A stretch of DNA of 35,714 nt from Nemertoderma westbladi (taxonomy: Eukaryota; Animalia; Xenacoelomorpha), in contig JAUCBJ010006465.1 in the NCBI GenBank assembly GCA_032718475.1, positions 1 through 35,714 of the forward strand, read 5' to 3'. Both the position numbers and the translations under genes were made by a program. This document shows, piece after piece, positions 5,316 through 34,699 of the stretch; within the stretch, counting starts at the first letter, position 1; each line of letters opens with the position of its first letter. Under the pieces are notes generated by a model that saw only the letters and a list, made by a program, of their open reading frames with translations, was not told the origin of the DNA and ran no database searches.

Positions 5316-6303
5316 CCCTATTAGTACCGGGCTATAATTGCTACTTGTATTTTTCGGCGTAATTTGTCAAATTTTGGTGCTAGCACCAAATTTCGTACCC
5401 ATCACCAAAAAGTACAAGATTGCGAAGTCCAGTGCTGTTTTTATTGATTTCATCTGTTTCAGGACCCTCATAAACCCATATAACGCAAGAAACAAGATGA
5501 TACTATCTACTGATAAATTTGCTTATTTTCCAAAATTTTGGTGCTGGCACAACAAATTTCACCGACCGTCGAAAAATACAAGTTTGAAAGCTCTTATGAA
5601 ATTTTTACTGATTCCATTGAATTCAGAACCCTCACAAACCCGTATAACGCAAGAAACAAGGTGACACAATCAATTGATATATTTGATGGTTTTCAAAATT
5701 TGGTGCTAGCACCACATTTTGCACCCACTTCTGAAAAATACAAGTTTGAGATGTTTAGTTTGATAATTATATATTCCATTGAATTCAAAACAAAAAATCA
5801 TCACACAAAATCAGTTCATAAATTGTCATAAGCAATTTTATCTATTGAATGGATTTTCAACCACCTACAACACCACCAACAACCTAGCACCAAAATTTGC
5901 AAACAGCACCGAAAAATACAAGTTTGATACGCTTGATGCAACTCGTATATATTCCATCGAAACCAGAACCCCAGAAACCCCAATTGCGTAAAAAGCAAGT
6001 TTCTAACAATCAATCAATTTACAAAATTGACATATTTCAAAATTTGGTGCTGGCACCAAAATTAAATCTAAAATCGATGTAAATCTAAAATAGAGATGTT
6101 ACAATTCATATTTAATGAAATGTAATTTTCAAAAAAACGTCTCAAAAAAAGTGCCAAAAGTAGGGTTAAAAAATGGTGCTATGACTCGAAAACTACTCAA
6201 TATTTTTGAAAACGGTTTTCACTACTAGGAAGACAATAGATTTAAGGAAAAGTCATAAAATTTCAGATTCCCAACTGCGTTTGTTTCAGAATTATAATAA
6301 AAA
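5316..6303 (+). mobile_element. piggyBac-like MITE, internally deleted, right end missing
   Basis: Starts CCCTATTAGTACCGGGCTATAA, identical to 22347, then skips about 475 bp relative to that copy. Same internal ~180-bp degenerate repeats. Confidence 0.8.
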
Positions 6304-6451
6304 ACGATAGGATTTACGATAGATTTACGATAGGATAGCGCGGGATTAACCCAGTTATTGTGAGTATGGTTTATAGGATTTTAATTTTGGGCTTTTGCAT
6401 AAGCCAATAGTGATTTCCTACAACGAATGCAATATATGTTTTATATTTTAC

Positions 6452-12162: not shown

Positions 12163-13311
12163 TGTTCGTGCTTTCAGACCTTTTAGCAGTTTAACCTGCC
12201 AATTTTAATTGTCCTTTTGATTATGAATTGACTTTAGCCCTTACCAATTACCTGGTGTACAGAAGTTACATCTGCCAAAGCCAGTCCGTGCGCGGCGTAT
12301 GACCCACGGTGTGGGAGACTGGATTCGGGCTCCTTAGGAAGTATTGCGGTGTAAGCTACTTTGTATTATTCGATTGATCGCTACTATATAATCTCTGACA
12401 ACCATATTTACTTTCGGGGAAAAATTAACAGTTCCTTTAGGACGTGGCGCTTTAAGTATAAAAACAGAGTTATGACTTATACCAATCACAACTAGATGGC
12501 CGCAGAGTTTCGTAAATAGCGCATTCTTTAGGAGATGCTTTATTAACTTTCACACTACTTCACACGACTTCACACGACTTCACACGACTTTACACTACTT
12601 CACACTAATTTGCCGACCATCACTGAATTTGATCATATATAAGGAGGATTGCAACTGACACACGTAGGGATTATGAAATAGCATTTAATTCACACGAAAC
12701 CACTATAATTTAAGTCGCAGTTGCTACCGGTAGACTCTTTCTCCGCTTACCTCAGTAATCAATAAGATTGAGGGGGTTTATGATTATTTATCGGTATTCT
12801 CCAAATATAACATCCATTAATATAAACAATTAATACAATATAAAACAGCATTAAAACAGTGCGGTGGACAGTCAGTATGTGTTCAGTCATATGAGTTGAT
12901 GTGTGTCCAGAGAGTCCGGATAGAGTGGTCCAGGGAGTCCGGATAGTGTTACAATGTTAATAGATTTACGTTCCTATAACTAAAGCCATCAGGTGTTTTT
13001 TGGGCCAAAGTCTGAAACGACCGTACTTAGTACAGAATTCTGAGATGAATCTAATTCTCAGAAAAATAATAACAATAATGCATTGCGCTAGTTCTCAGGT
13101 AGGTCTCCGTTGGTATAACAGAGAAGATTGCTCTGATTGGCTGAATAAGCCAGGACAAAGTGATCTCCACGTACCCAAAGAATCAGCTGACAGATTTCGT
13201 CATCTTGGTTCTAATTTCTTTCCGACGCGTAGTTGAACAATTTTAGGGCTATTTTAGAGTATTCCGCGCATTGCGTGAAAAAGACTTGTTATGTCCGCAA
13301 AAGCTTTTACT
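12163..13311 (-). repeat. 3' LTR
   Basis: Highly similar to 28135-29259 (scattered transitions, many at CpG, plus small indels). Preceded on the minus strand by a short purine tract GGGAGCGGA (PPT-like, ~13311-13319). Confidence 0.95.
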
Positions 13312-13389: not shown

Positions 13390-15604
13390 CAGTCCTTCTT
13401 TCGTGAACGGCGTTTACAAAGTTTTTTGAGACCAGTAAGAGTCTTTTTCTCTTTGGGGTGAGCCACTTTAAGGAGGGCCACAACTCCTGCGGGAAGGGTG
13501 CAATACGATTGCATCAGAAGGTTTTGGATTACGGTCGGTGTATCCGCCGGCCGAGGTACCCGGTTGATCTATATCAACATCGGTGGAACAAGGTCAAACA
13601 ACCTTTAGAGCTTGTTTCAGGATGGCAGCTCTTACCGGTCCTTGTTGGGTCGTTTGTACGACAGCATTAGGTTTACCGTGTGTAGTGAGAAATTTCCACG
13701 GTTTAATTGTTCTCTCTAATTCGCGTTCTCTGGCTTTATATTCATAGGGTCGTCTATGAATTTCTTGTAATTCAGGATGCGAGTTTATGAACAAGTCGCC
13801 ATGGGATTTATCAATGGTAGAAACTTTAAACTGTGTGTAGTATCTTCCTTTTTACCATATAATATTGCGTTAAATTGACATAATAGAGGTGATCTTTGAT
13901 CCCGTAAAATGAGTTTGGTAAAGGTCTAGCGCGTAGATTGACTTTGTGTACCATATGACGGACAAGATCCGCTCGATTGTCCGGAGGTTCAACGAGTATA
14001 CCGTTGACACAAGCGGCCTCGACTGGTGGTCGTTGCAACATAGGAGCGTCAGCAATAAGATCTCTAGATCTTAAGTTGATATGAACCGGTTGGGGTTGTA
14101 CCGTGGCGAAGAGTTTATCTCCGAAATGGGGAACCATCGAGGGATGAATGATGGTTTTGGAATAGAGATCTGTCATAAGGATTTGAACTTCCGGTTGGGC
14201 CAAAGCTGCTTCCCCTCTCTCATCCATCTCGATGTGCTCCTCCTCGAGCTGATTATCCTCCGCTTGTCGTTGGAAGCGCTCGTCCAAGAACTCTTGTAGA
14301 GAGTAGGTTCGTCCAAGTTTGATATCTTCCTCAAGATTCTGGATTTCCCGATCGAACTGAGGTAAAGCCAATTCCCTTACCGCTCGGACCCGTTGTTGCA
14401 ATTTACGTCTGTCCAAACAATCGTAAGTTCCCTTTCCGATCCTTTGCCGAATAGTGTCCAGCACATTTCGTACAACACCTTCCTCCACCTTGGTGACAGG
14501 TTGTATCGGAGTCAAACCGGGACGATTATACGGGTTGAACGGCGATATTAGATGTCCGCGTCCCAATCCGGTTAGCTAGGGAGTCTAGTATCTAAATTAG
14601 TCTAATATCTAGAGAGCCCACAACCGGAGTGACACCGACAATTGTTCGGGTAACACTAGATCTTTGAACAATGAGTACAGTTCAGGAGGATCCGTCATAC
14701 TATTAGGATCAAGAGTCTGAGGTCGCACTAGGGAATGAGGAGGTCTGACCAAGTATTCCGGAACTCTGATCATAGGTTTATTTAAGGATCGTTTGAGTCG
14801 AGTGAGCGTAGGTGATACGTCGAATAAGTTACGCTCAAAACTCCCGTAAGTATAGTGAGTAAAACTGTGTTTAGCGCAACGTCTCCGCGTATGCTTATGT
14901 CTCTCCGTTTGTAGGTTGGGTACAGGGCATTCATCGCAGCAATACCAAAGACGCACGTCTTGTAGGGGAAACGCTGGTGATCCCTCTCCAGTTTCACAAT
15001 ATTCCTCCATCCGCTCGAAGCCATCCGGTACAACAGGTAGCGGTCGATCGGCGGCAAGATACATCATAGTAAAATAGAGTCATTTGAGTTCCATCATAGG
15101 GTTATGATGTATACCTTGAGGACATCGAGTTTCTAGATTTTGTTGACCGGCCACATTGAGATAAGTTTCTCCCAAGAATTCTAAATATTCGTTGAAGTCA
15201 CTGCGTTTATCCGGCTCTTCAACATCTTCTCTTTCGAGTCGGTTTCGAATAGAATTTTCATGTTCAATTCTCAGTTTATCATTCCGACTCCGCTGGGCAT
15301 GATATTTAAATAGAATCATTTCCCTTTAGGTATCTACATCGTCTGTATCGTGTAAATCGACTGGATGACCAGCAGTTAAGAAGTCCATATACACACCATT
15401 ACGATGCGTACAGTGAGCGGCGAATTTTCTATAGTCCAACTCACGCCTGAGCCGCTCATCTGACATTGGCGGCTCGACACAACGGCCATCGTCCTCCGTA
15501 GTATGTTGACTAGCATCGCCGCTTATCAAACTATCAACAAACGCCCGCAGTGGTAGGGTATATCGCTTCCTGACACCAAGATCATCCTCTATCAACTCAG
15601 TCAT
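13390..15604 (-). pseudogene. Degenerate extra ORF (ORF3, ~700+ codons) of unknown function at the env position
   Basis: ORFs 15326-15604, 15080-15319, 14609-15067 and 13826-14566 are all in one frame, separated only by stops. A frameshift in an A-run near 13850 appears to continue into KGRYYTQFKVSTIDKSHGDLFINSHPE, and a further frame ends KKLCKRRSRKKD*. Confidence 0.7.
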
Positions 15605-16411
15605 AGCTGCTATATGAGTTCATCGATATTATAGTTAATAATAATCAGGCTAGCGGTCGTCGCTGCCTCCCCCTCTATGCCCCCGGACAGCGTGAGATCC
15701 TCAGCGCTGATGTACTGTCGTTGCTGTGCCTCTCGCCAACGTAGTAGCTACACAACGACAACAATACCGCGTGAGTCACTCCACTGTCCGTCCCCAAGGG
15801 CTTGGATACACTAGAGGTACTTGCTACAGAGGCAGGGTAACTTTCACAACTGCGACTCGCTACTGTAAACACACTTTAGTAGTAACATTCACCTATAAAT
15901 ATACAAATTTCACATTCCTGCCATAATTTGTACAAATTAGGGCCATTTGTCCGTTAGTCAAATGCTTTCCAGAATGCCACGTTATTATTATGTATCCCTA
16001 GATACTAGCAAGGTGCTATTTATTCCGCATGCTATTCAATGGGGCAAGCTTTCTATTGTTCTTTTAACTCGCTTCTAATTCTAGCGTTGTTGTTACTATG
16101 GTGACATTATGGAAAGCTAGCGGTAGAATTAGGGTAATTCTCATGCATACAGATCTGGGATGCTATTTAATAGTGATTCTTTAATTGTCAATATTCCTCT
16201 TATACATGATTTTATGAATTTTATTGGCTATTGACTGTACACTGGAGATTCTCTCACACTAATATACTTAATAGGGTGAATCTCCGCTCCCATGATCTAT
16301 TAATTAATGGAATTTTGGGAATGTTATAAATTGTATAAAATGACAATTTATTAAATTCATGAGAGGATATGAATTTAAAATTTATTCCCGTGAATTTTAT
16401 TATTTGATATT

Positions 16412-16770: not shown

Positions 16771-17591
16771 AAGATTTATTAACAGATTTATTTAATAATG
16801 TTATCAATACTAATAATATTTGTTAATATTTTGAGCTTCAATGCTACTGTTAAATGGACATCATTCTATTATATGTATTATTTAAAATACGGTGTGAGAG
16901 CAATATTGCAAGAAGCAATGTCAGTGAGAAGAGGCAAGTCGTTTCCAAGGTCTACCCAGAGCTTGGTTTAGCCAAGACACGAGGATCTGAACTTTGCATT
17001 CCTAATACTCTACTTACCAATAATACTTAAGTATAGTAGGGGCGGTATATTGTACTTTAATAAGTACTGACATTTCATCTTACTGTAGTCACGCATTTAT
17101 AGTATGATACGGACAGTAAGGAAAGAGAAAATGAATTACTTCTCGCCGTTAAACGAAATATATTATACAAAGTAATTAAGTAATAAAATACGAATATATT
17201 GCACTAATCTACTGAATAATCGTTAAAATATTAATTCTACTAAATAAAATTAAAGAAAACGATTATAATAAATAAAAATTACATAATAATACATACACAA
17301 ATATAAATAAAAATATAATATATAATATAATATATATAATATATATATTTATTATTTGTTATGCAGGTTAGATATAGTAGTTCACTTTTTGGTCACTATT
17401 CTCATTTGGGTTCATTCTTATTTTGGTTTCATGTATTTTATTTAGCCTTTAGTGGTATCAGTTGTTGGGTTTCATCTATTTACTACCGGTCTGATTTGTT
17501 TATTTCTCTATTTCAGTATTTGGTTTCATTTCCTGTATTATATTGGTCAATTGGTACTGTGCTGTTTTTAGATAGGGTAGGGACTCACAGT

Positions 17592-17648
17592 ACACTGCTG
17601 ATGATGGAGCTGTGTTTCCCCGGGTACAGTGTTTAAATCCTGAAACCC
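17592..17648 (+). ncRNA. Candidate hammerhead-like ribozyme with permuted strand order, copy 1
   Basis: ACACTG-CTGATGA-TGGA-(13 nt)-GGG-TA-CAGTGT-(TTAAA)-TCC-T-GAAA-CCC. Stem I is 6 bp, stem II 3 bp, stem III 4 bp. Confidence 0.55.
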
Positions 17649-18246
17649 TTTATTTTTATCAAATTTAGTATGTAGACTTACCCCTTTCGGCGGACTAAAT
17701 GTCCTGTATTTTCTAATATATAGGATAGTTATTCGTGCAGTTATTAAAGTGTTTATTTGTACAGGTTTTACTGTACCCATATTGTTTCTTATATATTTCT
17801 TGTGCAGTATGCCTCTTGTAGCCTATTGAAAGCTAGTTGCTTCCGTTACTCTAGTTCTGGGAGTTACTATTGGGTATCATTATTCTATCAGTGTTTGGGG
17901 GGGGGGGGGGGGTGTCTGTATGGTCTTGGGGTTGTTATTTACTGCTGTATTCATACCATTATATAACATATCTATTATTAGACTGTGCAATACAGCCATT
18001 ATGGATTTATTTGTTATGCAGGTTAGATATAGTAGTTCACTATTTGGTCACTATTCTCATTTGGGTTCATTCTTATTTTGGTTTCATGTATTTTATTTAG
18101 CCTTTAGTGGTATCAGTTTTTGGGTTTCATCTATTTACTACCGGTCTGATTTGTTTATTTCTCTATTTCAGTATTTGGTTTCATTTCCTGTATTATATTG
18201 GTCAATTGGTACTGTGCCGTATTTAGATAGGGTAGGGACTCACAGT

Positions 18247-18303
18247 ACACTGCTGATGATGGAGCTGTGTTTCCCCGGGTACAGTGTTTAAATCCTGAAA
18301 CCC
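18247..18303 (+). ncRNA. Candidate hammerhead-like ribozyme, copy 2
   Basis: Identical to 17592-17648. Confidence 0.55.
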
Positions 18304-18970
18304 TTTATTTTTATCAAATTTAGTATGTAGACTTACCCCTTTCGGCGGACTAAATGTCCTGTATTTTCTAATATATAGGATAGTTATTCGTGCAGTTATT
18401 AAAGTGTTTATTTGTAGTTAGGTTTCATTTTTGATAGGAGACTGGATCACATTGTTTCTATATATATATTTCGCCAGTCAGGTTGTACTGTACCCATATT
18501 GTTTTCTTATATATTTCTTGTGCAGTATGCCTCTTGTAGCCTATTGAAAGCTAGTTGCTTCCGTTACTCTAGTTCTGGGAGTTACTATTGGGTATCATTA
18601 TTCTATCAGTGTTTGGGGGGGGGGGGGGGGGGGGGGTGTCTGTATGGTCTTGGGGTTGTTATTTACTGCTGTATTCATACCATTATATAACATATCTATT
18701 ATTAGACTGTGCAATACAGCCATTATGGATTTATTTGTTATGCAGGTTAGATATAGTAGTTCACTATTTGGTCACTATTCTCATTTGGGTTCATTCTTAT
18801 TTTGGTTTCATGTATTTTATTTAGCCTTTAGTGGTATCAGTTTTTGGGTTTCATCTATTTACTACCGGTCTGATTTGTTTATTTCTCTATTTCAGTATTT
18901 GGTTTCATTTCCTGTATTATATTGGTCAATTGGTACTGTGCCGTATTTAGATAGGGTAGGGACTCACAGT

Positions 18971-19027
18971 ACACTGCTGATGATGGAGCTGTGTTTCCCC
19001 GGGTACAGTGTTTAAATCCTGAAACCC
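18971..19027 (+). ncRNA. Candidate hammerhead-like ribozyme, copy 3
   Basis: Identical to 17592-17648. Confidence 0.55.
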
Positions 19028-19692
19028 TTTATTTTTATCAAATTTAGTATGTAGACTTACCCCTTTCGGCGGACTAAATGTCCTGTATTTTCTAATATAT
19101 AGGATAGTTATTCGTGCAGTTATTAAAGTGTTTATTTGTAGTTAGGTTTCATTTTTGATAGGAGACTGGATCACATTGTTTCTATATATATATTTCGCCA
19201 GTCAGGTTGTACTGTACCCATATTGTTTCTTATATATTTCTTGTGCAGTATGCCTCTTGTAGCCTATTGAAAGCTAGTTGCTTCCGTTACTCTAGTTCTG
19301 GGAGTTTCTATTGGGTATCATTATTCTATCAGTGTTTGGGGGGGGGGGGGGGGGGGGGTGTCTGTATGGTCTTGGGGTTGTTATTTACTGCTGTATTCAT
19401 ACCATTATATAACATATCTATTATTAGACTGTGCAATACAGCCATTATGGATTTATTTGTTATGCAGGTTAGATATAGTAGTTCACTATTTGGTCACTAT
19501 TCTCATTTGGGTTCATTCTTATTTTGGTTTCATGTATTTTATTTAGCCTTTAGTGGTATCAGTTTTTGGGTTTCATCTATTTACTACCGGTCTGATTTGT
19601 TTATTTCTCTATTTCAGTATTTGGTTTCATTTCCTGTATTATATTGGTCAATTGGTACTGTGCTGTTTTTAGATAGGGTAGGGACTCACAGT

Positions 19693-19749
19693 ACACTGCT
19701 GATGATGGAGCTGTGTTTCCCCGGGTACAGTGTTTAAATCCTGAAACCC
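19693..19749 (+). ncRNA. Candidate hammerhead-like ribozyme, copy 4
   Basis: Identical to 17592-17648. Confidence 0.55.
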
Positions 19750-20073
19750 TTTATTTTTATCAAATTTAGTATGTAGACTTACCCCTTTCGGCGGACTAAA
19801 TGTCCTGTATTTTCTAATATATAGGATAGTTATTCGTGCAGTTATTAAAGTGTTTATTTGTAGTTAGGTTTCATTTTTGATAGGAGACTGGATCACATTG
19901 TTTCTATATATATATTTCGCCAGTCAGGTTGTACTGTACCCATATTGTTTCTTATAATATATATATATATATATAATATAATATAATATATAATATATAT
20001 AATATATATAATATATATAATATATATAATATATAATATAAATAATGTAGTCACACACCCACTCCAAACGCTG

Positions 20074-22346
20074 TTACGTTGGGGAGTCCCTAGATGTTTG
20101 TTGGATTAGGGAGGTGGTCGTGGGAAGAGTCTCTTGCCTTCCATAGTTACCGGACAACTCTCGGTCTCTTTCCAGTAAACATAAACGACCAACCGGGCGA
20201 TTAACTTGTTGTGTTTTGAACACAATTCCAGGTTTCTTAAAGTTACGTCGCATGACAACGATTTCTACCGATCGCACTAAACCATCATCGGATATATGAG
20301 TCTCGATGATACGACCTGTCTGCCACCTCTTACGGGGAAGATCTGATTCAACGATAAGGACCATGTCTCCGGCGCTGACGTTTTCTTGCTGCGCAAACCA
20401 CTTTGTTCGAAGTTGTAGCGTAGGAAGATAATGTTTTTCGAAATGGTCCGCGAAACGACGGGATAATAACTGCATAAGTTGCCAAGTTTGTCAGCAGTAT
20501 TCGTCTCCGTCTGTTATTTCCGATTGCGGGAGCATGGCTACAGGTTTCTTTAGTAGGAAATGCGCGGGTGTTAGCGCTTCTAGGGAGTCGGGACTAGATG
20601 AGACTGGCATGAGTGGTCTCTCATTGAGATAGGCGGCGATTTCTTCCGTTAACGTCTGCAAAAGTTCGTCGGTGAGATATGCGCGGCACGGCACTATAAA
20701 GTGAAATGCGGTCTTCACGCTTCGTATGAGTCTCTCCCAACTTCCTCCCCCCAAGGGGAGTTGGAGGCGTTGAAGGTCCAGCTAGATGCTGTTACTCTTA
20801 GCTGATTGTCCACCTGTCTTTGGTTCCAATCCTTTACGTAAGCTTTGATCTCGTTATTGGCGCCAATGAAATTTGTTCCCTTGTTAGATCTTATAGTGTT
20901 GCTAGTCCCAAAACGAGCGATTTGTAGGCGTAAGCTCAGTATGAAGCTGTTGGTAGATAGATCATTCACCATATCTAGATGGATCGCTCTACAAGTCATA
21001 CAGACAAAGATGACGCACCATCGCTTGACTATAGTCCTAGCGCAATATACTTCAAAGGGGCCAAATAAATCCACACCAGTATTAGTAAAGGGTGGTTCAA
21101 AAAAGCTTACTCGTTCCCTAGGTAATTCTGCCTCTCGCTGTGTTAAAGGCCTACTAAATGCTTTCCTACAGGGTATACAGTTCCTAAGAACTTGGTTTAG
21201 AGCTCTACGGGGCTTATGGAAATAATAGCGAGTTCGAATTTCGCTAAGAACTCGTTCTCTACCAGCATGATAAAGCTTACTGTGAATATCTACAATCATC
21301 TTGATTTGTATTTCAAGATTTCTAATGAGTATGGGAATTAGTTAATCTCCCTCCGACACGTATTAACCCATCTATCATCGTGCTAGAGAAACGATCCCTT
21401 AAGCGCATCTGTGGATTTCTCAACAACAACAAATACTTATCGGAATCCTCGTAACATTGCAGGAGTCTCAGTATCTGCTTATTGGTATCATCATGTTCTT
21501 GATAACTGATCTTCTCAGTCAGAAACCTATCAGACACTCTATAAGTGGGAAGGTCTTTAGTAGCATGGACCTTTTCAGATACTACTGGAGCGGTATCATT
21601 AGCGATCTTCGTCCTGGAATAGTGATGATGGAAACATCTTTTCAAATACACAACGGCCTTACAAAGCTGATTCCAGGAGCTGTAATGACCTATTGCTCTT
21701 TGTAGGAGAGGAGAGAGTCCTTGCGAGCCATCTGGTGTCCCAGATTTCCAGTCTCTTTCCCTGATTTCTATAACGGATTTAGTTGTATCTCGGGTAACAT
21801 CCGTGGGTGAGTTTAGGTCCACAGCGTTGTCACCGGAGGCGTGTAGCACAGACAGATCTATCACTGGTTTAAATAACTTTTATTTACTCGTCCGGGTTTT
21901 AGGTTTGACTTTCTCCGCTCCCTTGGCTTGTCTAAGCTCCGCCGTGGTAAGATGAGGAGGCCATTCCTCCTCTTCTTTACTCAGGAAGTCGGGTCCACCT
22001 AACCAGTCTGGAGTATCTATCAATTCTTGAGGAGTTGCTCCTCTGGAAGCGATGTCAGCTGGAATAATCGTCCCAGGGCAATGTCTCCATTGATCTATAT
22101 TAGAGCGACTTAGTATAATGGCTAGTCTGTTGGTAACGAAGACGCTGAACTGACAGACTTCATTAGTTATATACTCCAGAATGAGTAAAGCATCAGTCCA
22201 ATATACAGTTTTCTCCAGTGGATAGTCGATCTGTTCTGTTACATTCCGGCCAATGGCTGTAGTGTATAGAGCCGCCTTTAACTCCGCTCTGGGAACTCGC
22301 AGTTTGTTGTTTATTAGGGCTTTAGAGGTGACTAATGAAACCTTAA
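20074..22346 (-). pseudogene. pol: BEL/Pao pol C-terminal part: RNase H second half and integrase (HHCC, core, C-terminal domain)
   Basis: KVSLVTSK...PRAELKAA...YWTD...FVTNRL...WRHCPG..PADIASRG...WLGGPDFL; GLIRVGGRL; H....HAG...C..C; PFTNTGVDLFGP; RAIHLD; WERLIRSVK; LNERPL; LTPAHFL; GLVRSV. Contains stops and frameshifts; the catalytic SD..TNF motif reads SNKGTNF. Confidence 0.95.
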
Positions 22347-23865
22347 CCCTATTAGTACCGGGCTATAAAATGTTGTACAAATACCGGGGGGGGGGGGGTC
22401 ATATTGACCCCCCCCCCCTCTAAAATCTACAAATTTTTACGAAAACGTCTGATTTTTTGTTTGTACGTAGGTATCACTAGTCAGGATCCGACCGAAAAAA
22501 AAAATTTCGAAAAAATGTACTGGGGTGGTTATATTGCAGCACCAAAATTACAAGTAGTGCACAATTTTCAGAAAATTTGAAACTGACATTTTTCGTCTAA
22601 TTGTTTTTCAATACAGGTTTTCTGGGGCGCAAAATACATTGGAAAATATTTAAAAATGATATGATTACCATAAATGGCTGTTTAGTCCTCTCTGCGTAGG
22701 AAAAAAATGAAAAAAACAAGTTACCAGCACTTTTCAGTTAGAACACAAAATTTTTAATTCACTTATGCGATGCTATAAATTCACATTTTCAGGTTTTCTA
22801 GGGCGCTGATTCTAATGGAATACATTTCAAATATGCCAGATCATTGCTACTTGTATTTTTCGACGTAATTTTGAAAATTTTGGTGCTAGGACCAAATTTC
22901 GTACCCATCACCAAAAAGTACAAGTTTACGATGTCCAGTGCTGTTTTTATTGATTCCATCGGATTCAGGACCCTCATAAACCCGTATAACGCAATAAACA
23001 AGATGATACTATCTACTGATCAATTTGCTTATTTTCCAAAATTTGGTGCTGGCACAACAATTTTCACCCACCGGCGAAAAATACAAGTTTGAAAACTCTT
23101 ATGAAATTTTTACTGATTCCATTGAATTCAGAACCCTCACAAACCCGTATAACGCAAGAAACAAGGTGACACAATCAATTTATATATTTGATGGTTTTCA
23201 AAATTTGGTGCTAGCACCACATTTTGCACCCACTTCCGAAAAATACAAGTTTGAGATGCCTAGATCGAAAATTATATATTCCATTCAATTCAGAATAGCC
23301 ATAAACCTCTAAAACGCAAGAAATAAATTGTCACAAACAATTTTATCAATTGAATGGATTTTCAAAATTTTGTGCTAGCACCAAAATTTGCACCCACCAC
23401 CGAAAATACAAGTTTGATACGCTTGGTGCAACTCGTAAAAATTTCATAGAAACCAGAACCCCAAAAAACACCAATTGCGTAAAAAACAAGTTTCACACAA
23501 TCAATTTACAAAAATGACATATTTCAAAATTTGGTGCTGGCACCAAAAATTGGCACCCGCCGAAAAAACAAGTTTGAAATTTCTAAATCAATTTATATGA
23601 AAAGAGATGTTACAATTCATATTTAATGAAATGTAATTTTCAAAAAACGTCTCAAAAAAAGTGCCAAAAGTAGGGTTAAAAAATGGTGCTATAACTCGAA
23701 AACTACCCAATATTTTTGAAAACGGTTTTCACTACTAGGAAGACAATAGATTTTTAGGAAAAGTCATAAAATTTCAGATTCCCAACTGCGTTTGTTTCAG
23801 AATTATAATAAAAAAACCACGGGGGGGGGGTCATATTGACCCCCCCCCCCCCCCCCCCCCCCGGG
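22347..23865 (+). mobile_element. piggyBac-like MITE nested in the BEL RNase H region (longest copy)
   Basis: TTAA (22343-22346) followed by CCCTATTAGTACCGGG. G-run-TCATATTGA-C-run inverted repeats at both ends and internal ~180-bp repeats. Interrupts ...LRVETPDGS / KVSLVTSK. Confidence 0.88.
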
Positions 23866-24110
23866 ATCCATCGGGAGTTTCAACCCTCAGGTAGGCTACT
23901 ATACCTATTCCCATATCGCTAGCGTCTCCAAACACATGGAGTTGATAGGAATACGTGGGGAGAACGTGACCGAAATATGAGCGGGAAATCTTAAAGTTCT
24001 CGATAGATGGTAAAGAATCTTCCCATTTCATCCACTTCTTTAGCAGTTCTCCCTTAAGTGGATCATCCCACAAGTTGTTTTCGAGCCACATTTGTTGTAC
24101 TAAATCAGCC
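23864..24110 (-). pseudogene. pol: BEL/Pao pol: post-RT tether and RNase H first half
   Basis: QQMW...WDDPL...W..W...L...R.Y...LHVFGDAS..GIGIVAYLR. Confidence 0.92.
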
Positions 24111-24138
24111 ATGGTAGGGTCTCTATGTTGTTGGTCCA

Positions 24139-26993
24139 TCAATAATAGAGAACCTTTTTGTCCCAGCGAGTACCTACTCCACCCTTTGGCAAAGTTGATG
24201 CTACGGCTCCAACAACCATAGAACTCTGATATTCCTGAGACTTACCTAACCAGTCTAGCTGTCTACAGATCTCCTGAATCTCATCTGAAAACTCTATAAT
24301 CCTGCTGCTAAGAAACTTTCGGGGCGCTACTAATTTCGCATACAGATATCTAGCTATGTTAGTCCTGTTACTATACCTGATGTTTAATGTATCCCAAACT
24401 TGTCTCAATCCGTCCGGATGTCCAATAAACTTTAACGCCATTAACTTGGGAGGTCCTTCCAAGCATTCGATGAGGAATCGTAGTTTCTCTCCATTGGATA
24501 ATACGGAGTTCTGTATGTTATCTTTGTAATATTCATTAAAAGGTAACCATTTCATCTCATCTCCATTGAACTTGATGACCTCTCCCACTTTTACCGCTTG
24601 GCGGGCTTCAGTTCTAGCCATTTGACGTGTAAAACTTTTTGAGCCATCGAATTATTTAATATCGAATTATCGGTATATAAATTTCTCGGATTATTATCAG
24701 ATCTGTATGGGATATCATTATCAACAGGCTTATAGATACCCTTAATAGGGTTTACTATAGGAGTTTCTACTTCGCTAGCAGTATAGATGCATGTAGGCTC
24801 CACACCTTGCGTATGAAATACTTCAGACCTAACGGGCTGACACATTGTTACAGGGGGTGGTGGTATACCCATTTGTATATTTACTAATTTATCACGCTCT
24901 AGAGCGATATTTTGCTGTACTTCTTGCAGCTCTAACCTACTCTCTCTCACTGTTCCCTTTAACAGTTGAACAGTTCCTTCCAATTCTCGGACTTGCTTGG
25001 AAGATTTAATTTTATTATTTTCTAACTGTCCGAGCAACTGCTCCATCCCCCGTCATCCCTCGTCCACCCACTCAACCGCGGAGGCGGGAGTGTCTGCCAA
25101 CGTCGTAGCTGGATGGCATATTGGGACGACGGGAGACATTGCGTTTATAATGTCTTGCTCAGCGTCCAGGATTGTTTGGGATTCCGGCAGTTGTCTATTG
25201 GGCACAGGTAGTTTGGTACTGTGCAAAGGGAATTTAGAGTTAGGTTCTTGGAGCAAAGGGGTCTCTATCAAGGGAGTGGCTTCGCTAACAGGCCTAATTA
25301 TTTCTGGCTCATCTACTATAGTAGGGAGTCTTTCTACTGTAATAATTTGGGCTGTTGGTTCTTGATTACTTGAGTCTACATTAGCTAGTTCCCTTCTCAC
25401 CGCAGGGGGTAAGTTAGGTAACTTCTGCCGGTGTGGCGCTCTTCTATGTCCGCTTGAACGAGATTTATTACCTTTACCCTCGGGGTCCGTTGTATCAACT
25501 TCATCAGAGGAGGTAAATCCCTGTCTTCTGGGAGTAGATCGACTCAGTAGTTGCATCTGAGTAGCTGCTCTTTGTTTATTTAAGTAATCTTGTTTCGCCT
25601 GAAGGTTCTCCAACTCTAGTTGGGCTGTCGCTTCAGATACCCTCAGTTCTGCTTCTGCCACTGCCGCTGCTGCTGCCGCTTTTCTTTCAGCCTCTGCCAC
25701 TGCCGCTTTTCTTTCAGCTTCTGCCGCCACCGCTGCCGCTGCCGCCTTTCTTTCAGATTGTGCCACTGCCGCTGCCGCTTTTCTTTCAGCTTCTGCCGCT
25801 GCCGCCGCTGCTGCTAACTTTCGGTCTTCTATTTGCCTTTTCTTTATTTGTTCTTCTTGGTCCATTGTGATGAGGATGCTTTCATCAAATTTAGCCTGCT
25901 CCGCAGCTAATATTTCTGCATCTAAAGAGTCCAACACGAATTTGGCTCCCTCACTATTGGGGTGCAGTCCAGCTAGCCATCTCCTTAGCTCTTTGTCACC
26001 TATAAATCGTTGATAATCCAACAGATAGATGTCAATAGCATCCTTCTTCTTAGGTCTTTCGGATACCGCCTCGCCTTCCACGTGAGAAAAGGTTGTATCT
26101 GTTGATTCTCCGTGGGTTACTCGTTCAGTTAGCTGAACCCTCCATTGTGTTGTTCCCTGGACTTTAACATTCACTCGCTGGAACCAAGTCTTCACAGCCA
26201 CTTGCAACGATGTGTCTTGACTTCTCTTCGATGCCTCTTCAAAGGCTGAAAGGATTTATCTGATCCTCAAGATACATTCTCTCACTTGGTAAAGCAGCTC
26301 TCCCTGCTCTTGAGGTGCCTTAGGTTGTTGAAATAATTGAATTTCTATTCTTTACAAGGAGTTGAAGAATCCCTGGACATATCCTGCTGCTGACCTCTTC
26401 CATACAGCGGGATCTCTGGTGTCCCTCACTACCCCCATTTGGTATAAGTCTTCCCAGGCAGCTTCCGATAAGTTAAACGGGAGTCCGGGTCTGGGGAAGT
26501 TCCATTGAGTCTCTACAATAGACCTTAGTTCTTCCATCGGGTATCCTGCATAACTGTCCCTGGTCGATCTCTTATTTCTCATCCAATCCACTTGATGTTC
26601 TTCTACAGCTATAAGTACTCTAGTGAGCACGGCTCCAGGAAGAATTAGAAGTGGGTCGGGATAAACCACTTCTTCCATCCTTGCTCCGATCTTGGGCGTT
26701 AACTCTTCAGTGTCGGAACTAGAGTTGCTACGCAGTTGGGAAATAAGTTCTCGGTTCGGGTGCTGTTGTTGTTTGGCAGCCATCTCTTGGTCTCGCTTAA
26801 CTTGAGCCCTAGTGCCTATAATAGACCTATGGTGCTTTACTAGCATAGGGTCCGATACCACTACTGCAGGTATAACCTTTCTTACAGTAGGAGGGGACTT
26901 AGACTTCGGTCTGAGATGTTCTATACTTTGATCTGGGTCACAGATCGTTCTTTCCAGGAGACTATCTGACAGTGTTTGTTTTGTGTCAGACAT
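24139..26993 (-). pseudogene. gag: BEL/Pao gag with a long N-terminal region; DUF1759-like capsid domain at 24139-24621; C-terminus deleted
   Basis: ORFs 26352-26993, 25053-26207 and 24591-25046 share one frame with three internal stops. A frameshift leads into KFNGDEMKWLPF...LSNGEKLRFLIECLEG...WDTL..RY. No zinc knuckles, protease or RT follow. Confidence 0.85.
25655..25815 (-). repeat. Coding tandem repeat giving (A)n-(V)-AEAERK, about 4 times, within Gag
   Basis: Translation KLAAAAAAAEAERKAAAAVAQSERKAAAAAVAAEAERKAAVAEAERKAAAAAAVAEAE. Confidence 0.85.
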
Positions 26994-28134
26994 AATTTAT
27001 TTTGCAGTTGAATGCCTACTACTATAATGACAGTTAAAGCAAGTCTAGAGGAAATCAGTATCAACTGTCCATCTAGTAGTTACTGATATAACTCTAAACT
27101 ATAAGTCTTAAACTTAAACTGGTCTTAAACTATAAGCACTATGTTATGTACCCGGAGTGTCCTATACCTAGAGGTTAATTATCGAAGCCAACCAGAGCTA
27201 ACGGTCCTATTAACCATGTTACAACACAAGTATACTGCCTGCACACTAAATTACTTTCAGGAAAGCACTGTACTCTAAACCCTAAATTAGGTACAAGTAC
27301 TTATACAACAAATAACTAGCAGTTAAATATACGTGAACAGCCAAAAGAACCATGGTATCTGCTGGAGTAAACGGAGCACAAAATCACCAGTCTTTACCTA
27401 CGCCAAGCAGCCCTGATGTAGTACCGGGGTTAATTTAACTATAACGGTATGAATAACAAGCACAATTACTGTAAGGGATAAACTTGGGGAGAAGAAGGAG
27501 AAGCATAAACTCTGAATAATAAATATTACGCTACCCGTACAGACTATTCAAATAAAATACAGACCAAATGCTGGCAGACTACTGTCAAGCCTAAATAAAC
27601 TACAGTATATGCAATCTCCAAAATGGTTAGTTAGTAGGCATTCTAACTACGTAGTACGACTTATTCTTTCGTGAGGATTTACCTTACATCACTGGATGCC
27701 TCCACCTTCCTAACTAGCACTTTATCGGACAGACACTCTACATACACTGCAATCGCCTCAGACCTAACAAAAGTTAGACAACAATCCGGCCTACAAATTA
27801 TTTATACAATCTGAGCAGGCTTACATGCCTTCTGCTCAATATTACACTTACCGATAAATAAAACTGACAGAAATAAGTGAACCATACGAAGGAATAAGGG
27901 GTGATCAATCCCTAATCCCCTAACAGCCTACAATATACAATATTTCACAATCGAAATAATACTGGGTAAGTACCGGTTTGGGTTATTAGGCCTACAGTTT
28001 ACCGTCCGACCGGCACATTTGATTTTATTGCCTACTGAGCAATAAAGAAACTGAAATTTAATTAATGTTCTCACCAGAACATTAGACAAAATATATTTAT
28101 TGCCTACTGCGCAATAAAGAACAAAATCTATTAA

Positions 28135-29259
28135 TGTTCGCGCTTTCAGACCTTTAGCAGTTTAACCTGCCAATTTTAATTGTCCTTTTGATTATGAATC
28201 GACTTTAGCCCTTACCAATTACCTGGTGTACTGAAGTTACATCTGCCGAAGCCAGTCCGTGCGCGGCGTATGACCCACGGTGTGGGAGACTGGATTCGGG
28301 TTCCTTAGGAAGTATTGCGGTGTAAGCTACTTTGTATTATTCGATTGTTCGCTACTATATAATCTCTGACAACTATATTTACTTTTCGGGGAAATATTAA
28401 CAGTTCCTTTAGGACGTGGCGCTTTAAGTATAAAAACAGAGTTATGAATTATACTAATCACAACTAGATGGCCACAGAGTTTCGTAAATATGCTTTATTA
28501 ACTTTCACACTACTTCACACGACTTCACACTCCTTTACACTATTTCACACTAATTTGCCGACCGTCACTGAATTTGATCATATATAAGGAGGATTGCAAC
28601 TGACACACATAGGGATTATGAAATAGCATTTAATTCACACAAAACCACTATAATTTAAGTCGCAGTTGCTACCGGTAGACTCTTTCTCCGCTTACCTCAG
28701 TAATCAATAAGATTGAGGGGTTTTATGATTATTTATCGGTATTCTCCAAATATAACATCCATTAATATAAACAACAATTAATACAATATAAAACAGCATT
28801 AAAACAGTGCGGTGGACAGTCAGTACGTGTTCAGTCATATGAGTTGATGTGTGTCCAGAGACTCCGGATAGAGTGGTCCAGGGAGTCCGGATAGTGTTAC
28901 AATGTTAATAGATTTACGTCCCTATAACTAATGCCATCAGATGTTTTTTGGGCCAAAGTCTGAAACGACCGTACTTAGTACAGAATTCTGAGATGAATCT
29001 AATTCTCAGAAAAATAATAACCATAATGCATTGCGCTAGTTCTCAGGTAGGTCTCCGTTGGTATAACAGAGAAGATTGCTCTGATTGGCTGAATAAGCCA
29101 GGACAAAGAGATCTCCACGTACCCAAAGAATCAGCTGACAGATTTCGTCATCTTGGTTCTAATTTCTTTCCGACGCGTAGTTGAACAATTTTAGGGCTAT
29201 TTTAGAGTATTCCGCGCATTGCGTGAAAATGACTTGTTATGTCCGCAAAAGCTTTTACA
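28135..29259 (-). repeat. 5' LTR
   Basis: Reads TGTAAAAGC...GCGCGAACA on the minus strand and is a direct repeat of 12163-13311. Contains (CACACGACTT)-type 10-mers. Confidence 0.96.
28494..28587 (-). promoter_or_regulatory. Putative LTR TATA box (28581-28587) and downstream AATAAA (28494-28499), bracketing the R region
   Basis: TTATATA followed about 85 nt later by AATAAA on the minus strand. The same arrangement occurs in the 3' LTR and, with similar spacing, in the related solo LTR (TATAT ~30114, AATAAA ~30196). Confidence 0.55.
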
Positions 29260-29285
29260 TAGAGCATACTGCTGTACTGTAGTAC

Positions 29286-30545
29286 TGCTAAAGCTTTTGC
29301 GGCCAAAATGTCACCATTTTACACAATGCGCTGGGTACTCTAAACCCTTGAAAACTCTCAAGAACTTTGTATTTTATGAACTGATGTAAACTTCCTCCCT
29401 CCAGCGTTTATTCTCAGTATAACACTTTCCCCTACATTCCCACAGTAACCCAAATGCTCAGATTACCAAATCATTAGCCATTGGATATTATTATCTTTGT
29501 TTACGTTCTTCTTTGTTAGTCACCGTCCAATCAGTATACTTTCCATCCTATGTCACCCCATAGACTGAATTACCGGATCCATTGGTTACGGGTTGATGGC
29601 ATGGAAACTGGTCCCTGATTGGGAGTTCTTGCCTGTTCTATACGTTCTACGGCGTTCGATATGATTCATGCTTTGTGAACTACTTGAGGCAAGAATATTC
29701 TTGCAGGTTTCAGAGTTGTGATTATCTATTTCACTTCCTGACTCTGTGCCCAGAAACACCAGCGGCTAGAAAGATACAGACCGCAAATCTATTACCGTTT
29801 ACATTTCTATTATATGTTTGCATCTCAAACTTACATGCAGACTCACTGCAACACACACTGACTGTCTGATATTTCCGCAACACCGCATTTTTATACTGAT
29901 TTATGCTGTTATAATCTGTTGTCATTGTATCATATGGATTCATGTTAATAGTTGGAGAATACTAACGAATAACCGGTAGATCTCTTGGTTTTCATGATCA
30001 TTGAGGTAAGCGGAGGGGTTTACTATCCCCAATTGCATAGTTCAAATAACAGTGGTTTGTATGAGTTTATGCTGTTTCATAGACCCCAACGTGTACGTGA
30101 GTTAAGTTCTCCCTATATGCAAGTAAAATCGGTGACTGTAGGCAAATTAGCGTGTTTCAGTACTATTGCCCGTCCATGCGAGAGTGTGAACGTTCAATAA
30201 ATACATCCATAAAGGATGTAAACATTTGCGTTATCTCAAGCCCACCCGTTGTAGTTAGTATAAGTCATATTATTTTCTGCGTAGTAATTAGATCGCAACA
30301 CCTGAAAGGATCTGTCAGTATTTAACGGAAAATAAACATAGTTTTGGAGATTATATAGTAAAGATCGATTAAATAATACAAAGTATCCTACGGCTTGTTC
30401 CTATGACTTTCTGCTACCGAATCCAGTCTGCCACCTCCGGTGGGTCATATGCCGCGCTAGACTGGCTTTGGCTGTGTTCATCTGTCTTGGGCTGTCAGGT
30501 ATTAATAGACATATAAAGTAGCAGGTTAAACTGTTAAAGGACTGT
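29286..30545 (+). mobile_element. Solo LTR of a related BEL family, in opposite orientation
   Basis: Start TGCTAAAGCTTTTGCGG...CAATGCGC..GTACTCTAAA resembles the LTR 5' end. CCGAATCCAGTCT...TGGGTCATA.GCCGCGC..GACTGGCTT and GCAGGTTAAACTG.TAAAGG resemble the LTR 3' end. The middle is unalignable by eye; terminal CA and TSD are not resolved. Confidence 0.8.
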
Positions 30546-30886: not shown

Positions 30887-30977
30887 CTGAAATAGTTAGA
30901 ATATATTAAATTTCATTAGAAATATTCACATTAAATTGTACATATCTTGAAAAATCCGTTTACAACTTGGGAAAAAG

Positions 30978-31475
30978 AGTGGAAGGGTTTATTTATTGTG
31001 GAAGATCACCCATGGTGGTGAACAGGCATTCCTTTAAGAAACAGAGTGGAAGGGTATACTGTGGAAGATCACCCATGGTGGTGAACAGGCATTCTTTTAG
31101 GAAACGGAGTGGAAGGGTTTACTGTGGAAGATTACCCATGGTTGTGAACAGGCATTCCTTTAGGAAACAGAGTGGAATGGTTTACAGTGGAAGATCACCA
31201 ATGGTGGTGAACAGGCATTCCTTTAGGAAACAGAGTGGAAGGGTTTACTGTGGAAGATCACCCATGGAGGGGTGAACAGTCATTCCTTTGGGAAACAGAG
31301 TGGAAGGGTTTACTGTGGAAGATTACCCATGGTTGTGAACAGGCATTCCTTTAGGAAACAGATTGGAAGGGTTTACTGTGGAAGATCACCCATGGTGGTG
31401 AACAGGCATTCCTTTAGGAAACAGAGTGGAAGGGTTTACTGTGGAAGATCACCCATGGTGGTGAAAAGGCATTCA
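30978..31475. repeat. 63-bp minisatellite, about 8 copies
   Basis: Unit AGTGGAAGGGTTTACTGTGGAAGATCACCCATGGTGGTGAACAGGCATTCCTTTAGGAAACAG repeated head to tail. Confidence 0.95.
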
Positions 31476-31863
31476 TTGGCTTAACGAGCCTAAAAGATTC
31501 TCCCATTCATAAATTAATTTTGCTGAATTAAAAACTTTTGAAAATTTTAGCACGAAAAATACTGGAGATGGGTGCGAGAAAGGGCCCATAGCACGAAAAC
31601 TAACATAGCCATGTAAATAAAAAAAAAAAAACCTGGCGTTTGCTGTGTTGGATTGCCTATTAAATTTTAGGAAAAGTCACGAAATCGGCCACAACTGGTT
31701 AGAGAAGAAATAAGTACCAATCTGTTGAAATGTTAGACACTAAATATTGCTACAATGAACGCACGCAATCTCAAAGATCCACATCAAATATGGTGACATG
31801 GTAGCTCCGTAGCTCTGGCAATTTAATATAACAACGACATCATGACAACAGCCATGAAGTACA

Positions 31864-32720: not shown

Positions 32721-33872
32721 TGATTACGGTAAAAACACCATTTTCAACCTGCCTTTTAAAGGAAATTAATTGTTCTACAGTATAAGACTTCAATAATTAT
32801 ACTTAAAAATTATACAGATGTAATCCACATACTCAATTCTATTGTAGTTTTAAATTAGTTCAAGTGATTTGCTTTAATAATTGTGTCTTTAATTGATCTA
32901 AAGTAATTAAAACGGCATAAAAAATTGATTATCATTAAATACTGCTCATTTATTGGTTAACATCCAAGTTGGCTTGTTTCCCAGCAACACTTGAGGTATT
33001 CAGTCAGCCTTGCTTGTAAGAGGCAGACTGCTGCTGCTGCTGGTAGGATAGCATTAATTCCCCATCCATTCACTCACTCTCCATTCAACTGGCTGACTGG
33101 AGAGTGGAGGTGTGTTTAGGTATCGGGTTCAATGACATTAATATTATTACTAAAGTAACGTCGGGATGTTAATATTCACTGCAGCTATGAGTCTCTCTGG
33201 TTAGTTGAATGAATGAAATAAATTATTGTTTTACTGTTCCGAATATCAATGTTTATTTTTGTAGGCCAACTTACTGTATTATTATTTAATCTAAATGTAC
33301 ATAATAGTTTAAATAAATTATTTCACAATTTCATTCCAATTCATACTGCTTACGCAACCATGCTAATTAGGTATATTAAATGGCAGGATTGTTTTTAATT
33401 AAAATTTTTACAGAGCAAACAAGTATATTGTATTTAACTGAAAGTTAATTTATTTCGGTAAGTAGGCCTTGCGGTTTGTTAGTTTAGTTAGTATAATAAG
33501 TATCAAATATATTACGTGCTGCTGTACAGTAAACGCGGCTTTGCGTTATTGAATTACAGAATTGGCGGTACAAAGTACATTAATAGGGATCAGGCATATT
33601 GCATTTATATAATTGTTGTTGTAAATGTACAATAATATGCGCCACTTTTATTTTAGTAACTGCAATGTGTATTTCATTTGTACCTGCAACCCATTAAAAA
33701 GGGCAGCTGAACTTATCGCGGACAGGCTGACTATTCACCATAAAAAAAAACCCCAAATCGCCGCAGTTCCACTTACAGTTCCATAATATTATTCTGTTTT
33801 GTACGGTGGCCCATAACGGCCACCGCTCCTCTCACACACAGGTCACCCACACAAACATCATTCTTAATTTTA

Positions 33873-34195
33873 TAGTGTGTGTGTGCGTGGCATAGTGTGT
33901 GTGTAGGTGGCATAGTGTGTGTGTGGGTGGCATAGTGTGTGTGTGGGTGGCATAGTGTGTGTGTGTGGGTGGCATAGTGTGTGTGTGCGTGGCATAGTGT
34001 GTGTGTGGGTGGCATAGTGTGTGTGTGCGTGGCATGGTGTGTGTGTGCGTGGCATGGTGTGTGTGTAGGTGGCATAGTGTGTGTGTGCGTGGCATAGTAC
34101 GTGTGTGGGTGGCATAGTGTGTGTGCGTGGCATGGTGTGTGTGTGTGCGTGGCATGGTGTGTCTGTGCGTGGCATGGTGTGTGTGTGCGCGGCAT
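33873..34195. repeat. Compound (GT)n-GGCAT[A/G] minisatellite with ~20-24-bp units
   Basis: Repeats of GTGTGTGTG[C/G/A]GTGGCAT[A/G]. Confidence 0.95.
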
Positions 34196-34699
34196 ATGTC
34201 CCAGTGTCCGAGTGGATACAGCGCCTGACTGCTTTCACAATAGTGTTTGCGGCGCATGTTCAAATCCGACTTAAGGCTGTAGAAATTTTGCACCGTGGTG
34301 TTACTAGGCAAGCACTTTAGACTTAGTGCTACGCCAACCCAGCAGTATAATGGGAACCTGGCTTTGCTGGGGAAAAAATAATGCAGGCGCTCTGATAAAG
34401 GGTATGTGGCCCCTAAGGGTGCCTGAAATAACAAATATAAATGTTAAATTTATTTTTTTATAGTGAGTGTATACATCATTTCATTATCTCAGGTTAATTC
34501 AATATGTCGATGTATCTTAAGATTTGGTATAGGTGAGTAAAAAATAGCGATGAAAGTATATTAAATATTTGAGAATTGAATTAGTGTTGTTAAAAATTAC
34601 AGCAATAACATTGACCCAGATACCTTGGTATTAATAGTTTAGCTAATTGTTTAGTTTTATTAGATTAATAAAAGTGTTCCAAAACAATTCCTGTTTGTA

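Follow-up and report, generated by a model that had tools for sequence, protein, structure and literature searches.

The question raised by this locus is whether a hammerhead core whose strands stand in an unusual order is a true ribozyme and, if it is, what purpose it would serve in the genome of an animal. The motif lies on the plus strand at positions 17592-17648 of the 35,714-nucleotide stretch of Nemertoderma westbladi DNA that was analysed as a whole (the window). Its letters, its coordinates, its three stems and its core bases, as reported in the original prediction, were all borne out when the sequence was re-read and the pairing checked, and the observation itself is confirmed as real. 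Block C (17592-17608) comprises the 6-nt 5' strand of stem I, the CUGAUGA box (17598-17604), U10.1 (U17605) and the 5' strand of stem II, GGA (17606-17608). Block S (17622-17632) consists of the 5' strand of stem III, the GUA triplet and the 3' strand of stem I, and block G (17638-17648) of the 3' strand of stem II (UCC), U11.1, the GAAA at 17642-17645 and the 3' strand of stem III. Stem I joins 17592-17597 to 17627-17632 with 6/6 Watson-Crick pairs; stem II joins GGA to UCC at 17638-17640 in 3 bp, behind a U17605·U17641 apposition; stem III joins GGGU (17622-17625) to ACCC (17645-17648) in 4 bp, including U16.1-A15.1; and all three stems abut the core. The cleavage triplet reads GUA^C, with a cut predicted after A17626 by analogy with hammerheads. 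The conserved core, namely C3-A9 (CUGAnGA), G12-A15 (GAAA), U16.1 and H17, is present in all four copies of the motif found in the window. Positions 10.1 and 11.1 of hammerheads are normally paired, usually as G-C. The U·U at this position, which had already been pointed out, leaves it unpaired and is treated here as a departure from a usual, not a strict, feature.

The strand order corresponds to a layout that is already in the literature. Eckert et al (2023; PMC10085705) divided the hammerhead into blocks C, G and S and designated the order C-S-G as type CSG, and the blocks of the present motif run C, S, G. The A-C-B order recognised in the original prediction, which is indeed not a circular permutation, is therefore the published C-S-G; its novelty was overstated, since the topology had been described and two such RNAs had cleaved in vitro. 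In the accessible text and supplement of that paper, type CSG consists of two similar unique sequences (five by the count of the supplementary table), from soil metagenome DNA only, in which three pairs are flagged by R2R and none by R-scape. Both RNAs, CSG-1 and CSG-2, cut themselves in vitro where predicted, with rates of 0.004 and 0.026 per min. The authors regard the evidence for CSG as weaker than that for SGC, and the same text names no host or element for CSG and no biological role; one GCS candidate aside, it reports no such RNA from genomes of known organisms. Type SGC (HRIMA-1 and its variants) begins with another block and comes from metatranscriptomes, with 583 sequences and R-scape support. 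The published RNAMotif descriptors specify CGAAA, that is a paired 10.1-11.1, and allow the 5' strands of stems II and III to stand no more than 10 nt apart; judged by eye, they would miss the present element, because it has UGAAA and 13 nt. Standard models also miss it, as had been expected: Rfam gave no match at the gathering threshold across the whole window, and no ribozyme match at an E-value of at most 5 across 17300-18750. A literature search, with most subscription papers outside its reach, found the term 'type-CSG' in PMC10085705 alone, no description of CSG from animal genomes or retrozymes, and none on G10.1/C11.1 mismatches. The topology thus has a precedent; what appears to be new is the host kingdom, the retroelement setting and the variant with U·U and a long helix.

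The comparison also brings out a fourth helix. In the published CSG structure, an additional helix forms between the segment immediately 5' of stem I and the one immediately 3' of stem II (Eckert et al, 2023). This helix lay outside the pattern from which the present motif was recognised, yet it is found here in the same place, which supports the assignment. Its 5' strand occupies 17580-17591 and its 3' strand 17609-17620, both on the plus strand: 17586-17591 pair with 17609-17614 (6 bp) and, past a 2x2 loop, 17580-17583 pair with 17617-17620 (4 bp), with a U·G and then a G-C closing the stem I/II end. What had been described as a 13-nt linker is consequently the 12-nt 3' strand of this helix plus C17621, a single unpaired base before stem III that is C or T among the contigs of the family. 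Because the 5' strand of the fourth helix belongs to it, the element starts at 17580 and not at 17592, and the suggested construct of 17585-17655 would truncate that strand. When 16-mers were drawn at random from the window, draws that may include real ribozyme copies, six abutting pairs arose in 118/20,000 and an equally stable duplex in 32/20,000.

Folding of 17576-17655 gave the same picture. The fourth helix is the dominant predicted helix, with pair probabilities of 0.92-1.0, stem III reaches 0.9-0.99, and the strands of stems I and II sit in two loops; these probabilities cover the nested helices, namely the fourth helix and stem III, as the program cannot predict pseudoknots. The nested scaffold is that of the published CSG consensus, where stems I and II are pseudoknots. 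A competing GCUGUG/UACAGU hairpin, previously raised as a caveat, has a pair probability of 0.0 once 17580-17591 are included. The earlier idea that a short linker replaces the usual loop-loop contact holds in part: the 5-nt UUAAA at 17633-17637 does bridge the tips of stems I and II, but it is no simple replacement, as the fourth helix is also present and dominates the fold. A fourth helix of 8-12 bp would have about the length required to lead back, tip to tip, from stem II to stem III, as a linker of 1-2 nt demands.

[quoted passage not shown] The ten two-sided differences fall short of strict covariation, which presupposes common descent, and they are what a shared fold would predict. CSG-1, CSG-2 and the present motif have in common the C-S-G order with four helices, a 6-bp stem I, helices that abut without a spacer, a fourth helix closed by U·G and then G-C and set 1-2 nt apart from stem III, and the circumstance of being known from DNA. 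The linker of CSG-2 is UUAAA, identical in length and letters to that of the array motif, and that of CSG-1 is UUAAU, giving a shared UUAAW. The differences are a G10.1-C11.1 pair in CSG against the U·U here, a stem II of 5 bp against 3 bp, a stem III that is one pair shorter here, a fourth helix of 8 bp against 6+4 bp with a 2x2 loop, a GUC triplet against GUA, and other stem letters; moreover, the published sequences come from soil metagenomes, whereas ours stands in a tandem repeat of an animal genome. By its layout in sequence, the motif is a type-CSG hammerhead with a non-standard 10.1/11.1 pair (Eckert et al, 2023). The likeness to CSG-1 and CSG-2 could be convergence.

These comparisons bear on two other readings of the locus. 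The first is that short motifs have come together by chance in an AT-rich repeat. A relaxed C-S-G descriptor gave four matches in the window, which are the four known copies, and nothing else on both strands; applied to both strands of 1,500 dinucleotide-shuffled versions of the window, 107,142,000 bases in all, it produced six loose matches and none equal to that observed, a control that favours the motif, as the descriptor was composed after the motif had been seen, and whose margin is wide. The nested folding energy of the motif is not unusual (z of -0.4 to -0.8), which leaves some room for coincidence, as does one loose match in a bacterial coding region. On the other side stand the absence of equal matches in 107 Mb of shuffled sequence, the independent fourth helix and the agreement with a published layout of which the original prediction was unaware, and we regard chance as extremely improbable. 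The second reading is that of an ordinary type I hammerhead that has lost its GAAA, with a local stem II formed by GGA and the UCC at 17617-17619 and a palindromic CCGG, the downstream UCC-U-GAAA-CCC being coincidental. The local GGA/UCC pairing and the CCGG before GUA can indeed be read in the sequence, and the tandem repeats of animals normally carry type I hammerheads (Cervera and de la Peña, 2020, PMC7229834; Li, Clavereau and Pollet, 2026, bioRxiv 10.64898/2026.07.22.740005). Nevertheless, no GAAA stands between CUGAUGA and GUA in any of the four copies, nor between TCC and CCGGG, where its presence had been named in advance as grounds for this reading; none occurs either among 12 of the 17 indels found in the four sequencing runs described below. 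The local stem has a probability of 0.0 in the fold, the downstream block provides both missing partners, and the fourth helix and the UUAAW linker would be further coincidences. The order C, G, S without a pseudoknot, which defines type I, is not that of the array motif, and we consider a deleted type I hammerhead very unlikely.

The search for relatives in other collections was less informative. Two degenerate CSG patterns and one 15-mer recovered 49+2+84 viral, 31 metagenome and 56 prokaryote-genome loci, 222 in total, from collections poor in animal DNA and with patterns that required either a 6-bp stem I or GG/CC in stem II and could thus pass over CSG of another form. One of the first 138 loci and none of the last 84 passed a loose pairing filter, BLAST of the repeat unit against all 222 found nothing, and no convincing CSG homolog emerged among these viral, metagenomic and prokaryotic loci. 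The single loose match (locus L101, 1480-1575, minus strand, Candidatus Competibacter) lies in a 193-aa lipoprotein-like ORF with a signal-peptide-like stretch; it was set aside as likely due to chance, given the coding region and a fold that buries CUGAUGA in one long hairpin.

The setting of the motif gives the second part of the answer. The original prediction was right about the single motif and overlooked that it recurs in a tandem repeat. A retrozyme-like array extends over 17352-19957 on the plus strand, composed of three full units (655, 724 and 722 bp) and a partial unit of 505 bp, each of which carries one of four letter-identical copies of the 57-nt motif, starting at 17592, 18247, 18971 and 19693. 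With the fourth helix included, the second, third and fourth copies of the ribozyme occupy 18235-18303, 18959-19027 and 19681-19749 on the plus strand. Units 2-4 are distinguished by 1-3 substitutions; 62 bp are missing from unit 1. The unit has 36% GC and 43% T; its longest ORF (123 aa) matched no Pfam family, the GAAAC of block G is the sole GAAAC that it contains, and neither a descriptor scan nor an Rfam search found a rival processing ribozyme in it. Cutting at the predicted sites would yield monomers of 655, 724 and 722 nt. Two further features recur in every unit: a long hairpin 40 nt 3' of the ribozyme (17690-17740), without an Rfam match, and a 7-8-nt motif complementary to block G of the ribozyme, four times per unit (18080, 18122, 18177 and 18421).

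Metazoan non-LTR retrozymes have been defined, and searched for, by means of type I hammerheads (Cervera and de la Peña, 2020; Li, Clavereau and Pollet, 2026). Members of the class are expected to be expressed as linear and circular monomers and to be related to the pseudo-LTR of a Penelope-like element in their own genome. The array resembles them in several respects: it is a tandem repeat, non-coding and low in GC, each unit has a single hammerhead, the units in an array are few, and the genome contains many copies. Its tandem units each contain a complete hammerhead, and its GC of 0.36 lies under the 50% expected of a non-coding retrozyme, one ORF having been tested and found without a Pfam family. 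Its hammerhead is CSG and not type I, and because of this the array is filed as retrozyme-like and not as a member of the class. Its unit of 722-724 bp exceeds the 150-450 bp given in the earlier of the two studies and falls inside the range of 51-972 bp in the later one. Retrozyme target-site duplications, when present, are longer than 4 bp. At the array, no clear duplication was found, both junctions lying within TA/TATAA-rich microsatellites (17301-17351 on the left and 19953-20045 on the right), and the array ends do not match the predicted cut site. Ends unrelated to the cut site fit tandem insertion after rolling-circle reverse transcription. An identical 9-mer at 17084-17092 and 20046-20054 flanks the array together with its microsatellites, and this pair may be a target-site duplication, the ends of an LTR or a product of chance, the last roughly estimated at 1 in 10.

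The wider window contains a spliced major-facilitator transporter gene on the minus strand (4539-30887; homologs of PF07690, oxalate:formate antiporter-like), with exon-like matches at about 30887-30693 and then from 11277 down to 4539. The array is predicted to lie within an intron of about 19 kb of this gene, in which several transposons are also found. As the ribozyme is antisense to the gene, it would not cut the transporter pre-mRNA. A decayed element of BEL/Pao type follows the array on the minus strand (20074-27000), with DUF5641, an integrase zinc finger and DUF1759; alanine-rich 27/33-bp repeats occur within it at 25650-25850, and no matching LTR pair was found for it in the window. 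BEL/Pao retrotransposons are essentially restricted to animals, and these domains together with the spliced gene would in themselves make an animal source very likely. The possibility that the array interrupts a BEL/Pao LTR of which an empty copy stands elsewhere in the window was rejected, as neither flank has a second copy. No Penelope-like or Naiad ORF was recognised in the window. Other repeats were observed as well. An element of 162-164-bp subrepeats, each with a palindrome, is present in three copies (1336-2121, 5364-6313 and 22386-23852), the third of which splits the BEL/Pao element and is bounded by terminal inverted repeats containing G/C runs; the three-copy element is likely a non-autonomous DNA transposon. 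ORFs without a Pfam family at 13826-15619 on the minus strand, with a weak lead to DUF3435 (score 0.87, low recognition), are possibly the remnant of a tyrosine-recombinase transposon. A repeat of about 1 kb with inverted arms occurs in two copies that are 96-98% identical (12182-13307 and 28153-29344), and the regions 3-774, 34700-35371, 30954-31540 and 33832-34227 contain an RVT_1 reverse-transcriptase fragment, an ORF with an rva_4 integrase core, and 63-bp and 20-bp minisatellites.

The repeat unit is not confined to this window. It was found in five DNA runs of one organism, from three studies, with 118, 128 and 302 aligning records in runs X1-X3 and 8 in X4, over a range of identities, and in X1-X3 many of these records run at their ends into unlike sequence. 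The runs listed as carrying it are all of DNA, which has no bearing on whether it is expressed. The recurrence of the unit across runs of three studies indicates that it belongs to a repeat family and did not arise from faulty assembly of the window; runs X6 and X7, of other organisms, contain next to none of the words of the unit. Variants were considered over 611 bases in four runs at a threshold of 5%. Among 40 of the 41 variants, two fall inside the 69-nt ribozyme against about 4.5 expected by length, a depletion that is not significant, and none affects a core base or a base of stems I-III. The commonest in-motif variant among them is C17621>T (18276 C>T), which occurs in 4, 9 and 15 contigs of runs X1-X3 and affects the unpaired base. 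The other is A17587>C, carried by the main contig of run X4; it disrupts a pair of the fourth helix, and none of the same variants compensates for it. Diverged contigs across the ribozyme exist (records 11, 13 and 21), with 16-25 other letters.

Taken together, we propose that the motif is probably a CSG hammerhead with four helices, likely to cut itself after A17626 by analogy with CSG-1 and CSG-2, and that its role is to process the transcripts of a retrozyme-like mobile element; the interpretation offered with the original prediction is thereby partly supported. The fourth helix and stem III would form first as two neighbouring hairpins, whose loops would then pair with each other and so create the pseudoknotted stems I and II. 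Together with the fourth helix, the UUAAA linker would keep stems I and II side by side in place of the loop-loop contact. Multimeric transcripts of the plus strand would be cut after A17626 into monomers about 720 nt long that bear a 5'-OH and a cyclic phosphate, as in known retrozymes. In the retrozyme model (Cervera and de la Peña, 2020; Li, Clavereau and Pollet, 2026), a host ligase would then circularise the monomers, a borrowed reverse transcriptase, for which the Penelope-like enzyme is the usual candidate, would copy the circle by rolling circle, and the copies would be inserted as tandem arrays at TA-rich sites. Cleavage would probably be slow, because of the U·U at 10.1/11.1 and the 3-bp stem II. 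Several observations weigh against this proposal: the uncompensated A17587>C, the misfolding induced by flanks, the weak stem II and the 5/24 CSG-1 pairs broken or absent; the array ends away from the cut site, the lack of a clear target-site duplication and of a recognised Penelope-like ORF in the window; and the identity of the four copies, with no homolog from the 222 pattern-matched loci.

It can also be hypothesised that the element is CSG by descent and is now nearly or wholly inactive, as a result of the U·U, the short stem II and complements within the unit, the array having grown by satellite-like duplication of DNA. CSG-1 and CSG-2 do have G-C where the U·U stands (Eckert et al, 2023), the fourth-helix change in run X4 is uncompensated, and near-identical adjacent units fit recent local duplication. 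Long contexts point the same way: over 21 contexts with longer flanks, the fourth helix kept a probability of at least 0.8 in 16, and stem III was at least 0.5 in 14 and below 0.5 in seven, and two long linear fragments folded with an upstream 8-mer in place of the fourth helix, whose probability dropped to 0.01 and 0.11. Within the unit, a 9-nt segment on the plus strand (18487-18495), about 200 nt downstream, is the exact complement of the cleavage-site strand (18277-18285); 5/2,000 shuffles yield such a complement spanning the cut. Its pairing has a probability of 0.87-1.0 in three fragments, 0.03 in a longer one and 0.0 in the circle, where a different segment occupies the cleavage site at 0.53. 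These complements could represent misfolding, or a switch that would allow the cut during transcription and protect the circle afterwards, which makes 18487-18495 a candidate off-switch. In Xenopus, moreover, 1/9 predicted retrozymes cleaved in vitro and 8/9 did not (Li, Clavereau and Pollet, 2026). Inactivity is difficult to reconcile with core bases that are intact in 4/4 copies and free of variants among those considered in four runs of three studies, and the numbers of records in X1-X3, with their many ends in unlike sequence, fit a dispersed family. The U·U itself has an active precedent: the axolotl hammerhead HHR_Amex2, with U·U at the base of helix II, was 22% cleaved in 1 h as a monomer and did better as a dimer (Cervera and de la Peña, 2020). 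We consider inactivity unlikely on balance.

The weakness of stem II, whose duplex amounts to -1.1 kcal/mol, raises the question of whether an active ribozyme might be wired differently, either as a strand-swapped dimer of two units or with the 5' strand of stem II taken from upstream (AGGGU at 17574-17578 with AUCCU at 17637-17641), which would give A10.1-U11.1 and a split block C. The upstream duplex is indeed stronger (-3.2 kcal/mol), and G17577>A in run X4 would convert a G·U in it to A-U, a single change, in one contig, that equally fits an outer closing helix. In the axolotl, hammerheads whose helices are weak perform better when dimeric (Cervera and de la Peña, 2020), and certain Naiad 3' ends show an S-G-C order by eye (PMC8557442). 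The contiguous wiring, however, agrees with a layout that cleaved in vitro (Eckert et al, 2023), and no helix was seen by eye that would clamp the strand after A9 to the upstream strand. Such rewiring is in our estimation distinctly improbable, and the contiguous four-helix CSG ribozyme is retained as the preferred reading.

Naiad and Neptune elements target (TA)n, which recalls the TA-rich junctions of the array, and the accessible text of the same study reports Naiad elements as being without hammerheads (Craig et al, 2021, bioRxiv 10.1101/2021.04.23.441226). In the Naiad supplement (PMC8557442), searched with four short motifs, three of the seven GCTGATGA places are found at the 3' end of a record and have GAAA upstream of them, and two of these three are by eye clearly S-G-C, with UGG after CUGAUGA as in the array motif. 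The C-S-G layout was found at 0/7 GCTGATGA places of that file, whose line breaks can hide matches, and the S-G-C order of the Naiad ends thus differs from the plain published C-S-G of the array motif. A general link between scrambled hammerheads and Penelope-like elements is plausible. We advance only tentatively, as a proposition somewhat more likely to fail than to hold, that CSG hammerheads serve as ribozymes in animal retrozymes or Penelope-like derivatives that form an overlooked class, invisible to type I searches, that the two soil examples come from such invertebrate repeats, and that the antisense segment switches the ribozyme off once transcription is over so that the circle survives.

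A third and divergent sequence with the four-helix layout and ten two-sided differences strengthens type CSG, which also gains a context, that of a multicopy repeat in a eukaryotic genome. The repeat family present in this genome would furnish the covariation data that type CSG is missing. Should the element cleave, surveys of retrozymes and Penelope-like elements based on type I descriptors would undercount such elements, and a pseudoknotted hammerhead could drive the formation of circular RNA in animal cells.
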